Of a stretch of DNA of 60,341 bases, positions 8,319-11,740 are shown one piece after another. Within the stretch, counting starts at the first letter, position 1. The number at the start of each line of letters is the position of its first letter. Location: the IMG/VR virus record IMGVR_UViG_3300029256_000003. One strand, given 5' to 3'. A model generated the notes under the pieces. It was not told the DNA's origin. It searched no databases and saw only the letters and a program-made list of their open reading frames with translations. The DNA is from a virus. Made by a program: the position numbers and the translations under genes.

Positions 8319-8708
8319 ATGTTAGTAGGAACAACAAATCTTAATACTACCCTCAACTTAACCTATGTGTTGACAGATGTCGTAGAAACCCTTCTCTATG
8401 ATTTGAGAAGTGAAATGGGGAAGCAAGGCCATGAGTTGCGCCACGATGCGAAACGCAATTTCAACACAGCTATAGCTTCTATTCGTAAATTGAAACAGGA
8501 CGTTGACAAAACCCAGTTCTCCACACAGGAGAACTTTGGAAACGACTCCGATTGCCTTCTTGCGTTTATCAGATTGTTGGTAGACCGGTGCGGAGACGAT
8601 GATAAGAAGATGTTCGAGTTTTATAATTACATCAAGCGGTTCCCTTCACAGCTTGGGTTGGAGCTGGCTGATGAGAAGAGTGTGTTTGCGCATATATTTG
8701 ATAATTGA
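8319..8708 (+). CDS. Hypothetical protein
   Basis: 129 aa ORF in the gene train. Confidence 0.6.
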   Translation: MLVGTTNLNTTLNLTYVLTDVVETLLYDLRSEMGKQGHELRHDAKRNFNTAIASIRKLKQDVDKTQFSTQENFGNDSDCLLAFIRLLVDRCGDDDKKMFEFYNYIKRFPSQLGLELADEKSVFAHIFDN

Positions 8709-8728
8709 TATTCATAACTAAGATAAAG

Positions 8729-9934
8729 ATGAATAAAACTCACGGTTCTTTATTTAGCGGTTTTGATGCCCCTAGCGTTGCAGCTTCATGGATGGGCTGG
8801 AAAAATGCCTTTCACTGTGAGATAAACCCTTTTTGCAACGAGATACTAAAATATTGGTTTCCTGATTCAGAACATTATGAAAATATTACAAAGACAGACT
8901 TTAGTCAATGGAAAGGAAGAATCGATGTCCTCACAGGCGGATTTCCTTGCCAGCCTTTCTCCCTCGCAGGTCAGAGAAAGGGAGCGGATGATAACCGCTA
9001 CCTCTGGCCGGAAATGTTACGAGCAATACGCGAAATCCGACCCGCTTGGGTTATTGGTGAAAACGTTGCTGGAATCCTCACGATGGTTCAGCCCGGCAAG
9101 GAGACTGAAGTGGGAAGCCAAACCTCTCTTTTCGGAGAAGATAACCGAAAAAGAATATTGCTACGACAAGAGTATGTTGTCGAAACCATCTGTAAAGACC
9201 TTGAGCGAGAAGGATATTCCGTCCAACCGTTGCTTATTCCGGCTTGTGCCGTCGGAGCGCCCCACAGAAGAGACAGAGTGTGGTTTATTGCCCACTGTGC
9301 AGACTCAAGGACTGAAGATGTGCGACGAGAACGGGAAGACAAGGTTCTATCCGATGGAATTGCTCCCGACACCAATGGCAAGCGATGCAACAACCGGAGC
9401 GATAATTGGAAAGAACGACCATTTTATTACAACAGGAAACGGAACTCCGAGGAAGATCAATCAAAACGGGATAAACGGAAGTGTAGGACTTGCAAGAATG
9501 GTTCAGTTGCTGCCGACTCCCAATGCTCGGGAGGCGGACAAATACAGCAAAAAATACAATCCAAACAGTCAGATGGGAACAGCTTTGACCGCAATGGCAG
9601 TGAATGGGATGTTGCCTACTCCGGTACGCCGAGATTATCAGCCATCCGTCTCCCCTCAAACACTGAAACGGAAGGATGGAAAGATGAGAACGGACAGCCT
9701 CTGCAATCTTCCAGTAATGCTAGGGGAACATTGCTTACAGAATGGTGGCAGAACTTCCCAACTCAACCCCCTGTTTGTCGAGGAAATGATGGGGTTCCCT
9801 TTAATGTGGACAACCTTACCATTCCTTTCACAAAATGGAGACAGGAATCAATTAAAGGATACGGAAACGCCATAGTTCCACAGGTGATTCTTGAAATTTT
9901 CAAAGCAATTGAAGAAATAGAACAATTAGAGTAA
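8729..9934 (+). CDS. dcm: DNA (cytosine-5)-methyltransferase, frame A
   Basis: - Motifs present: I HGSLFSGFD, IV GGFPCQPFS, VI IGENV, VIII RRDRVWF, X GYGNAIVPQV.
- The stretch between VIII and X is low-complexity.
- ATG at 8729 is preferred over TTG at 8705. Confidence 0.85.
   Translation: MNKTHGSLFSGFDAPSVAASWMGWKNAFHCEINPFCNEILKYWFPDSEHYENITKTDFSQWKGRIDVLTGGFPCQPFSLAGQRKGADDNRYLWPEMLRAIREIRPAWVIGENVAGILTMVQPGKETEVGSQTSLFGEDNRKRILLRQEYVVETICKDLEREGYSVQPLLIPACAVGAPHRRDRVWFIAHCADSRTEDVRREREDKVLSDGIAPDTNGKRCNNRSDNWKERPFYYNRKRNSEEDQSKRDKRKCRTCKNGSVAADSQCSGGGQIQQKIQSKQSDGNSFDRNGSEWDVAYSGTPRLSAIRLPSNTETEGWKDENGQPLQSSSNARGTLLTEWWQNFPTQPPVCRGNDGVPFNVDNLTIPFTKWRQESIKGYGNAIVPQVILEIFKAIEEIEQLE
8877..9875 (+). 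CDS. Overlapping +1-frame ORF inside dcm (frame B): LPTP-repeat / MGFP-motif segment
   Basis: 332 codons without a stop, lying entirely inside the dcm gene. It translates to three (L/M)LPTP repeats and NPLFVEEMMGFPLMWTTLPF (a motif-IX-like E..MGFP). The sequence is protein-like exactly where frame A is low-complexity. Confidence 0.5.
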   Translation: MKILQRQTLVNGKEESMSSQADFLASLSPSQVRERERMITATSGRKCYEQYAKSDPLGLLVKTLLESSRWFSPARRLKWEAKPLFSEKITEKEYCYDKSMLSKPSVKTLSEKDIPSNRCLFRLVPSERPTEETECGLLPTVQTQGLKMCDENGKTRFYPMELLPTPMASDATTGAIIGKNDHFITTGNGTPRKINQNGINGSVGLARMVQLLPTPNAREADKYSKKYNPNSQMGTALTAMAVNGMLPTPVRRDYQPSVSPQTLKRKDGKMRTDSLCNLPVMLGEHCLQNGGRTSQLNPLFVEEMMGFPLMWTTLPFLSQNGDRNQLKDTETP

Positions 9935-10155: not shown

Positions 10156-10329
10156 ATGAGCGAAATCAAGAATTTAAAAATAGGTGACCTATTCTCTATT
10201 CGCAAAAATGGAATAGTGTATGAGTTTCTCGGATATTGTCCGATAGAGAACCTCCCTATTGCTTTTAATCGCAATAAGTATGAAACAGTATATTTTGAAG
10301 ATGAAAATAAAAAAGTCTATATGCAATGA
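10156..10329 (+). CDS. Small hypothetical protein (57 aa)
   Basis: My translation: MSEIKNLKIGDLFSIRKNGIVYEFLGYCPIENLPIAFNRNKYETVYFEDENKKVYMQ. The stop overlaps the next start (ATGA). Confidence 0.4.
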   Translation: MSEIKNLKIGDLFSIRKNGIVYEFLGYCPIENLPIAFNRNKYETVYFEDENKKVYMQ

Positions 10330-11231
10330 AAATAATAGTAAGTTTTTCCGGTGGTAAGGATTCGCAAGCCTGTTTAATCCAGGCTACCAATAAATACGGA
10401 GCCGATAAAATAGAAGCTGTTTTCTGTGATACTGGTTGGGAGCATCCCGAAACCTATCAACATATTAGTGACGTGTGCAAACAGCTTGATGTTAAATTAG
10501 TAGTTTTGAGAAGCAAGAAATATACTGATTTTGTAGATATGTCTATCAAGCGCTCCCGGTTCCCGTCTTCCCAAGGAAGGTTTTGTACTTCAGAATTGAA
10601 AATTAAACCGATGATTGATTACATTCTCTCACTTACTGAACCTTGCGTGATTATACAAGGCATCCGGGCAAAGGAAAGTGAAGAGCGTGCTAAACTTCCC
10701 TATGAATGCAATTACTTTGGGGAGTATTACGAACGCATTAAAAAGAATCGCAAAGGAAAGATTGTTGAAGTATGGAAGCAGGATTATCGTAGAAAAGATG
10801 TACTTAAATGGTGTGAACACTATGATGCAAGCGTTTCCCGTCCGATTTTTCAGTGGTCGGCACAAGAAGTAATAAATCATATCTTATCTGCCGGACAAAA
10901 GCCAAATCCTTTGTATTCTCGTGGATTTTCCCGTGTTGGTTGCTATCCTTGTATTATGTGCCGAAAGCAGGAAGTCAAACTCATTTCACAAGAAGAGTTC
11001 GGGCGTAACCGCTTGATAGATGCAGAGCAAAGGATGAAAGAAGAAACTCCAAAAGGTTCGTCTTTCTTCTCACCCGGTTACATCCCCAATCGCTTCTGCA
11101 AGAATAGAACTTACCCAACAGTACAGGAAGTTTTCGAGTATGTGAACCGTAACGATGTCGGTATGGATGATATGTTTGAGCCAGAAGGTGGATATAGTTG
11201 CATGAGCCTTTATCATGGACTTTGCGAATAA
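10326..11231 (+). CDS. PAPS-reductase-like PP-loop ATPase family protein
   Basis: The N-terminal PP-loop is IIVSFSGGKDSQ. The C-terminal Cys cluster is GCYPCIMC. Confidence 0.8.
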   Translation: MKIIVSFSGGKDSQACLIQATNKYGADKIEAVFCDTGWEHPETYQHISDVCKQLDVKLVVLRSKKYTDFVDMSIKRSRFPSSQGRFCTSELKIKPMIDYILSLTEPCVIIQGIRAKESEERAKLPYECNYFGEYYERIKKNRKGKIVEVWKQDYRRKDVLKWCEHYDASVSRPIFQWSAQEVINHILSAGQKPNPLYSRGFSRVGCYPCIMCRKQEVKLISQEEFGRNRLIDAEQRMKEETPKGSSFFSPGYIPNRFCKNRTYPTVQEVFEYVNRNDVGMDDMFEPEGGYSCMSLYHGLCE

Positions 11232-11257
11232 GAAGTTTAATTCAAATCAGAATAGAA

Positions 11258-11740
11258 ATGAATACAACCTTTGAAAAATCGGCTAATACCACTGATGAAT
11301 GGTACACACCGAAGGAAATTATAGACGCATTGGGAAAGTTCGATTTGGATCCATGTGCTCCGGTTAACCCACTTTGGAAAACAGCAGAAATCATGTACAA
11401 CAAGAATCAGGATGGATTAACTAAAAAATGGATAGGTCGGGTTTGGCTAAATCCTCCTTATTCCCGTCCGCTTATAGAACAGTTTGTTAAGCGTTTGGCA
11501 GAGCATGGAAACGGAATTGCATTACTTTTCAACCGTTGCGATTCAAAAATGTTTCAAGATGTAATATTCGAGAAGGCAACAGCGATGAAGTTTCTACGTA
11601 ACCGGATTCGTTTCTTTCGTCCAGATGGTACTCGCGGAGATTCTCCCGGTTGTGGTAGTATCCTAATCGCTTTCGGTGAAGAGAATGCAGAGATATTAAG
11701 AACCTGTGATATCACAGGTAAGTATGTTAGAATCAATTAG
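11258..11740 (+). CDS. DNA N6-adenine methyltransferase (phage Dam-like)
   Basis: DEWYTP near the N-terminus and the catalytic NPPYS motif. The ATG at 11258 follows the upstream stop. Confidence 0.8.
   Translation: MNTTFEKSANTTDEWYTPKEIIDALGKFDLDPCAPVNPLWKTAEIMYNKNQDGLTKKWIGRVWLNPPYSRPLIEQFVKRLAEHGNGIALLFNRCDSKMFQDVIFEKATAMKFLRNRIRFFRPDGTRGDSPGCGSILIAFGEENAEILRTCDITGKYVRIN

Follow-up and report, generated by a model that had tools for sequence, protein, structure and literature searches.

A phage C5-cytosine methyltransferase gene with a conserved second frame nested inside it

Two open frames at one methyltransferase locus

The window analysed here, the whole 60,341-nucleotide (nt) stretch of IMG/VR virus record IMGVR_UViG_3300029256_000003, is a mosaic, temperate-phage-like Bacteroides genome, and our subject is a cytosine methyltransferase locus in it at which two long frames are open on the same (plus) strand. 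Open reading frame (ORF) A, or alpha, spans 8729..9934 and encodes 401 amino acids (aa) from the ATG at 8729, comprising C5-methyltransferase motifs I-VIII, a stop-free linker and motif X. ORF B, or beta (8877..9875, 332 aa), lies in the +1 frame relative to A and is nested wholly within it, with an overlap of 999 nt. An earlier note made from the letters of the sequence had pointed to two such frames sharing about 1 kb, and both were recovered in our analysis. A longer call of ORF A (8705..9934, plus strand, 409 aa) starts from a TTG; the ATG at 8729 agrees with the starts of the homologues.

The catalytic motifs of C5-cytosine DNA methyltransferases (PF00145) are all present in frame A: motif I (SLFSGFD, 8747-8767), motif IV with its PCQ (GGFPCQPFS, 8936-8962), motif VI with its ENV (GENV, 9056-9067), motif VIII with its RxR (PHRRDRVWF, 9260-9286) and, in this frame only, motif X (GYGNAIVPQV, 9857-9886), whose residues G379, N380, A381, I382, V383 and P384 are invariant among homologues. 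The earlier note had listed the same motifs for frame A, and PF00145 matches the frame with E=3.6e-36 (125.7 bits) in two stretches, the best covering residues 7-119. The TIGR00675 match to frame A ends at residue 277, and an alignment with M.HhaI covers motifs I-VI and, weakly, VIII. Between VIII and X, where the note had seen neither a target-recognition domain nor motif IX, searches with the PF00145 and TIGR00675 profile hidden Markov models (HMMs) likewise found neither, and frame A reads as a low-complexity linker rich in R/K/N/S/D/E/Q. Homologues of ORF A in Bacteroides genomes carry the annotation 'DNA cytosine methyltransferase'. The AlphaFold2 model of A is of low confidence overall (mean predicted local distance difference test, pLDDT, 43.7) and reaches no more than moderate confidence in its core (residues 1-190, block-mean pLDDT 30-82); the core model matches the M.HhaI large domain in a Foldseek search of the PDB (E=3.5e-12, about 191 columns), and the linker has no Foldseek match in the PDB, residues 193-385 having a pLDDT of about 26 and almost no secondary structure in this low-confidence model. 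Motif I, at window positions 8747-8776 (residues 7-16 of A), has the form SLFSGFDAPS in 33 of the distinct homologues and GLDAPS in three, as against the canonical SLFSGIGGPE in the clade of phage BS-TP4 (14 sequences). In the atypical form the glycine-rich cofactor loop is partly lost, the protein nevertheless being under purifying selection.

Frame B begins with a stop-free leader (8877..9227) on top of A motifs IV-VI and continues into a short region, junction 1 (9228..9296), whose bases encode A motif VIII (IPACAVGAPHRRDRVWFIAH) in one frame and B RCLFRLVPSERPTEETECGLLPT in the other. There follows a recognition region (9297..9764) with three LPTP modules, LLPTPMASD (9360-9386), LLPTPNAREAD (9507-9539) and MLPTPVRRD (9609-9635), over which frame A reads its linker, and then a motif-IX-like element, NPLFVEEMMGFPLMW (9765..9809), that overlaps A's conserved FPTQPPVCRGNDGVPF. 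Residues 105-315 of frame B match phrog_1008 'DNA methyltransferase' (E=8e-23), and sequence searches of Pfam, NCBIfam and PDB gave no match. Homologues of B number 3736 proteins in a set of 5.8 billion, and the Bacteroidota-type B family comprises 3928 clusters at 50% identity (E <= 1e-3).

In 50 of 50 distinct homologues ORF B begins with an ATG in the same position, and frame B closes 9 or 17 codons upstream of it. The TAT codon of A that creates this ATG is likewise kept in 50 of 50 sequences, which is weak evidence because TAT makes up 70% of Tyr codons and the sequences are related. Full-length B homologues hold one to seven LPTP modules, and the 575-aa protein P0169 holds about 12, counted by eye from its sequence; both the number and the identity of the modules vary strongly among close relatives (for example P0016, P0019, P0024, P0169 and P0229). 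Whole modules are also common to otherwise different genes, such as LLPTPRAVEVVEHPMKAAARTKDRTGTKLNNLSSGAAFG, which is found in phages BS-TP4 and BKO1-TP3 and not in the window. This variation suggests cassette exchange of specificity.

Conservation of both frames and the frame under selection

BKO1-TP3 and BS-TP4, two Bacteroides phages that have been isolated and sequenced in full, have both frames intact: A and B are 389 and 320 aa long in the former, 440 and 372 aa long in the latter. We scanned 80 loci in IMG/VR for a layout in which motifs IV and X share one stop-free A frame and a +1 B frame of more than 250 codons is nested within it. This double-ORF layout was kept in 70 loci, the window and both isolated phages included, which represent 51 distinct nucleotide sequences and range from 321 to 536 aa for A and from 260 to 421 aa for B, with varying module content. 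The loci without the layout are mostly cut by contig ends. Six depart from it by disruption or insertion, in four independent events: one lineage (L010, L013 and L041) has B interrupted by a stop, a stop interrupts A in L069, L078 is truncated and L082 carries an insertion. The last adds about 175 aa to frame A without shifting it (L082 3301-3960, also L069; P0474, 604 aa, with PF13392) and, judged by eye from its sequence, looks like an HNH homing endonuclease. Its place is exactly at the B-to-A junction, with ...NDGLP before it and NVDNLTIPF after it, and it ends frame B early; canonical intein ends were not seen in it.

In solved C5 enzymes the variable region and motif IX form a small DNA-recognising domain, and motifs I-VIII with X form the large domain. 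The two-domain architecture of C5-methyltransferases is described in PMC3404938. With the C-terminal two thirds of B as tblastn query we found a relative encoded in a single frame, the 'DNA methylase' gp6 of Mycobacterium prophage prophiFSIL01-1 (BK061311.1, 3402-4757), in which motifs I, IV, VI and VIII, four (L/F/M)PTP modules, NPRFSEWMMGWPLDW and GNGVVPQ follow one another in the same order as the parts in the window, but all in one frame and without a nested ORF. A conceptual A-B-A chain of the window aligns with gp6 from end to end (BLASTP E=3e-27), and in it the NPLFVEEMMGFPLMW of frame B aligns with NPRFSEWMMGWPLDW, the element preceding motif X of gp6; the earlier note's description of frame B, three LPTP repeats and then a motif-IX-like element, is borne out. 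The HMM comparison that the note had proposed agrees with the alignment: PF00145 matches A in two stretches and B not at all, and the conceptual fusion gives one continuous match over residues 7-395 (129.7 bits, against 125.7 for frame A alone), lengthened by NPLFVEEMMGFPLMW. Because the A-B-A chain is collinear with gp6, we take the selected part of B to be the variable region plus motif IX, the small domain. The note had offered an overprinted gene as one candidate explanation; an overlapping gene is supported, but not as a de novo overprint, since what is selected in B is the same enzyme's small domain, displaced into the other frame.

To ask how often a frame would stay open by chance, we replaced the codons of the selected frame, in 300 copies, by synonymous ones at the frequencies with which the genes themselves use them. 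Over 8877-9290 (138 codons on top of A motifs IV-VIII), where the openness of frame B had already been remarked on, B has 0 stops against about 5.3 expected and was open in 0 of 300 recoded copies of the window gene; across homologues the probability of an open B frame over these 138 codons is 0-0.017 per sequence. The converse holds for frame A over the stretch selected in B, with 0 stops against about 10 expected in the window and 0 of 300 simulations open, and with 0 stops against 5-15 expected in the homologues (89-250 codons, probability of being open essentially 0). Stops in either tested frame are absent from all 50 distinct sequences, whereas the third frame has 9 and 11 in the two regions of the window, and 8-12 and 5-16 in those of the homologues. 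Neither these counts nor the profile searches of frame A refute the earlier note's observation.

Codon-position diversity, computed over distinct homologous sequences, shows which frame is under amino-acid selection. From the start of A to motif VIII, variation peaks at A position 3 (B position 2), the mark of selection on A; from just after VIII to MMGFP it peaks at B position 3 (A position 1), the mark of selection on B; and from about 9810 to the end it peaks again at A position 3, with selection on A. Over the B leader (8877..9227) diversity at A positions 1/2/3 is about 0.09/0.002/0.24, and A is thus the selected frame there, since variation peaks at B codon position 2; over 9297..9764 only B is selected, since the peak is at B position 3. 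In the motif-IX-like element, positions 1 and 2 of the B codons show little diversity. At junction 1, where B GLLPT is the +1 reading of A WFIAH, diversity is minimal at all three codon positions (0.056/0.013/0.096). Low diversity at all three positions is found around motif VIII (A ...IPACAVGAPHRRDRVWF, B ...RCLFRLVPSERPTEE..GLLPT) and again around A FPTQ.PVC..DG / B NPLFVEEMMGFP, and these two spots have the look of true dual constraint. A single fused chain would be unable to hold both members of either pair, WFIAH and GLLPT or FPTQ.PVC..DG and NPLFVEEMMGFP, because they are read from the same bases. Fourfold sites of A have a diversity of 0.243 in the overlap with the B leader (n=38) against 0.49-0.50 outside it (n=7; Mann-Whitney p=0.011), a halving that suggests some extra constraint from B, with an outside reference of only seven sites. 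Both frames are conserved and selected to stay open, and the order of amino-acid selection along the gene is A-B-A.

The nested frame is not confined to Bacteroides phages. In four loci B starts 4 nt past the start of A: in Acinetobacter phage ABMM1 (L084; A 954-1868, B 958-1854), in a Pseudomonas locus (L088; A from 1501, B from 1505), in a metagenome contig (L089; A from 1170, B from 1174) and in the Escherichia coli PT62 prophage (L091; A from GTG 1200, B from ATG 1204). In Synechococcus phage S-H1 (A 1029-1844, B 1120-1776) it starts 91 nt past that of A, and in a Porphyromonas phage (A 906-1892, B 1117-1734) 211 nt past it. The +4-nt loci have a double start, ATGAATG, or GTGAATG in PT62 (L084 944-960, L088 1501-1507, L089 1170-1176, L091 1200-1206), and in the Acinetobacter phage a single AGGAG precedes both starts. 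An N-terminus MSW(L/F)(F/L)S, the +1 reading of the double start, is present in 108 of 120 proteobacterial homologues of Acinetobacter B. All six distant loci pass the stop-avoidance test, the nested frame is +1 everywhere (Bacteroidota, Proteobacteria and cyanophage), and the overlap among the loci examined runs from about 620 to about 1050 nt. Of proteobacterial-type B there are at least 7551 proteins, without a Pfam domain and for the most part named 'hypothetical protein'. The hallmarks of B-type proteins in general, read from the sequences, are themselves +1 readings of A: FPAKTS or FLASLS of GFPCQ..S, and WKT or VKT of (L/G)ENV. The PCP07014 prophage of E. coli has another copy (L090 1200-1980), by its annotation a pseudogene ('internal stop'), in which the breaks in frames A and B nearly coincide, at 1565 and 1569.

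Two chains or one

A biochemical precedent for a C5-methyltransferase encoded in this way is M.EcoHK31I of E. coli HK31 (target YGGCCR), a heterodimer in which both chains are needed for activity, alpha holding motifs I-VIII together with X, beta holding motif IX, and in which the beta gene lies wholly within the alpha gene in another frame (PMC2836561; PMC3404938). Like it, the window has an alpha ORF carrying motifs I-VIII plus X, as well as a beta ORF nested in alpha in another frame, an arrangement kept in 51 distinct homologues, and its beta carries the motif-IX-like NPLFVEEMMGFPLMW. The two differ in the placing of target recognition: the published alpha holds a predicted target-recognition domain and the published beta only IX, whereas the recognition modules of the window lie in beta, and its alpha is, by codon-position diversity, unconstrained filler between VIII and X. 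The overlap here amounts to 999 nt, and the number of beta modules is variable; the likeness is drawn from the published layout. The sizes of M.EcoHK31I alpha and beta, about 38 kDa and about 23 kDa, suggest that it may belong to the same family. Our preferred reading of the locus is a split C5-methyltransferase of the M.EcoHK31I type, in a variant form whose recognition domain lies entirely in the nested frame.

We therefore consider it probable that the locus encodes one phage C5-cytosine DNA methyltransferase made as two polypeptides from overlapping frames of one mRNA, a heterodimer for which M.EcoHK31I provides a biochemical precedent. Alpha would supply the catalytic large domain, with motifs I-VIII and, at the very end of the chain, motif X; on its way from VIII to X the ribosome would read about 150 A codons whose amino-acid sequence is unconstrained, a linker that must stay stop-free so that motif X can be reached. 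Beta would initiate at the conserved ATG at 8877, begin with a leader of about 115 codons over A motifs IV-VI that is weakly constrained or unconstrained as protein, and then give the small domain, made up of tandem LPTP-x-A-x-D recognition modules and the motif-IX-like element. By analogy with M.EcoHK31I, for which this has been shown biochemically, alpha and beta would associate non-covalently and rebuild a normal two-lobed enzyme; the assembled enzyme would methylate phage DNA, and exchange of modules in beta would change or multiply its target specificities. The model predicts that beta has an initiation of its own at 8877, that the two chains associate, that they are enzymatically active and that the modules have the role given to them here.

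Several points weigh against it. Translation of both frames and expression as two chains are what we infer from comparative data, and the A-B-A pattern of selection is equally expected from a single chain made by two frameshifts. In the B leader (8877-9227), codon-position diversity gives no clear sign of selection on the amino acids, and the model does not explain why the leader should be translated in the Bacteroides phages, in which B starts 148 nt inside A. Motif I of alpha is atypical in the window's clade, FSGFDAPS as against FSGIGGPE. Finally, B alone gives no confident AlphaFold2 fold (mean pLDDT 35.9 from a 40-sequence alignment), so its assignment as the small domain is drawn from sequence collinearity only.

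The A-B-A pattern could instead reflect programmed frameshifting that yields one full-length enzyme, by a +1 shift after motif VIII and a -1 shift after MMGFP, at C_CCT_TTA in the window, with the unshifted products as by-products or regulators. Such shifts would account for amino-acid selection that runs exactly A-B-A, for the collinearity of the conceptual fusion with a single-frame relative and for its one continuous PF00145 match; moreover, the heptamer to which the earlier note had drawn attention is present, CCCTTTA at 9797-9803, phased on frame B as C_CCT_TTA in the X_XXY_YYZ form. It is, however, not conserved: many relatives have CCCTTTG, L046 has CCCGTTA, and throughout the BS-TP4 clade it is missing (GGATTTCCACCAGAT). 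Nor does a stable RNA structure lie downstream (minimum free energy of 9797-9900, -18.2 kcal/mol; mean of shuffled sequences, -17.4; z=-0.27). Given these variants and the lack of structure, we rejected the -1 heptamer as a conserved mechanism. At junction 1 neither a +1 slippery site nor an in-frame stop was seen when the alignment was inspected by eye, with no formal scan. Frameshifting also leaves unexplained why, in every lineage, B is open for 138 codons upstream and A for 90-250 codons between the shifts, and why there should be a conserved B ATG and a proteobacterial double start. Two polypeptides are favoured because two fixed-site frameshifts need none of these four features. Programmed shifts from A to B to A, which the note had also considered, are at best weakly favoured by the data, and we think them unlikely.

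Beta might also be a separate protein made from an internal start near 9230-9300, the upstream 350 nt of frame B being open for another reason; occasional frameshifted or alternatively initiated ribosomes giving a usable product, or a composition-level role, would be possibilities for that reason. The codon-position variation of the leader, which is A-type and not B-type, fits such a start, as does the partial activity in vivo that an N-terminally truncated M.EcoHK31I beta keeps (PMC2836561). But the absence of stops from the leader is strongly non-random, the conserved ATG has the closure of the frame just upstream of it, the fourfold sites of A are half as diverse within the overlap, and the proteobacterial B frame is open from 4 nt past the A start, which together make an internal start quite improbable. 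As for a single-frame real gene disguised by compensating sequencing or assembly indels, or by decay into a pseudogene, several database proteins are A-to-B fusions that switch at different places, one of them through a 10-bp deletion, and one E. coli copy is annotated as a pseudogene. Against this, 51 distinct sequences, including two isolated phages, share the two frames, both frames are stop-free against expectation, and the +1 relation is identical in Bacteroidota, Proteobacteria and cyanophage. The two compensating indels that the note had listed as a further explanation are refuted by the same layout in the two isolated phages, in 70 of 80 loci and in distant phyla, and we regard an artefact or pseudogene as extremely unlikely.

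The many A-to-B fusion proteins in the database include P0004, P0009, P0028, P0044, P0048 and P0103. P0103 (nine contigs; L087 compared with L002) has a 10-bp deletion (TGTTCGGAGA) relative to phage BS-TP4. We considered phase variation by repeat slippage as the source of the fusions and rejected it, the one examined being a plain 10-bp deletion with no repeat change. For this reason the fusions are taken here to be ordinary frameshift or deletion mutants, visible because both frames are open.

Related systems, annotation and significance

The subunits of M.AquI of Agmenellum quadruplicatum come from consecutive genes. Like the methyltransferase of the window, M.AquI is a naturally split two-subunit C5 enzyme, whose subunits reassemble (PMC3404938), but it is described there as separate polypeptides, with no nested frame. 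M.AquI is split within the variable region and has motif X on the small subunit, whereas motif X is on alpha in the window. The Bacillus phages SPR, phi3T, rho11s and H2 encode multispecific C5-methyltransferases that are single polypeptides with tandem recognition modules, which differ between related phages. With tandem LPTP modules that vary between relatives, each perhaps giving one specificity, the enzyme of the window may resemble the SPR/phi3T type, from which it would differ in being split. With the -1 frameshifting of phage tail chaperones (G/GT) and of dnaX, the locus shares an in-phase X_XXY_YYZ heptamer; unlike in those systems, the heptamer is unconserved and without a stimulatory structure, and both frames are open far beyond it. 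A literature search for widespread nested beta ORFs in phage methyltransferases, incomplete in its coverage, returned only the M.EcoHK31I papers.

Taken across phyla, the loci lead us to lean towards the view that there is a very large class of phage and prophage C5-methyltransferases in which a whole small domain is encoded in the +1 frame over the gene for the catalytic domain, with neighbouring or shared initiation regions, and in which cassettes are exchanged while remaining stop-free in two frames.

Only alpha is annotated in the RefSeq record of the E. coli PT62 prophage (PGAP) and in the GenBank records of BKO1-TP3, BS-TP4 and the Acinetobacter and Synechococcus phages; the Porphyromonas phage record is the exception among the annotated records checked, with B as a separate 'hypothetical protein', the name that beta mostly receives where gene callers call it. 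Predictions of specificity from alpha alone would be meaningless, since alpha has no recognition domain.

Directly downstream in the window lies a PAPS-reductase-like gene (10326-11231), which overlaps by 34 nt an ORF at 11198-11740 whose counterpart in BKO1-TP3 is a 'putative DNA N-6-adenine-methyltransferase'. Because these two genes adjoin it, the locus appears to be a cluster of DNA-modification genes. The same downstream neighbours are found in phages BKO1-TP3 and BS-TP4, and in the protein P0071 B is fused to a PAPS-reductase (PF01507) domain like that of the window's downstream gene. Antisense ORFs of 101 and 124 aa lie within the dual-coding region on the minus strand (9088-9393 and 9285-9659), with similar ones in L001 and L002, and are probably a by-product of composition.

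In bacteria and phages, long overlaps between genes of the same strand are rare and usually met with doubt. The comparative data presented here are unusually clean evidence for two frames held open over about 1 kb, and they suggest a reason for the overlap, namely that one enzyme has been split along its domain boundary. Among the viruses of prokaryotes, the nested methyltransferases could be one of the larger families of genes with a long overlap on the same strand. They would offer natural material for asking how modular DNA-recognition cassettes evolve under the constraint of two frames, as well as naturally heterodimeric methyltransferases of the kind already used for targeted methylation, as M.EcoHK31I has been.

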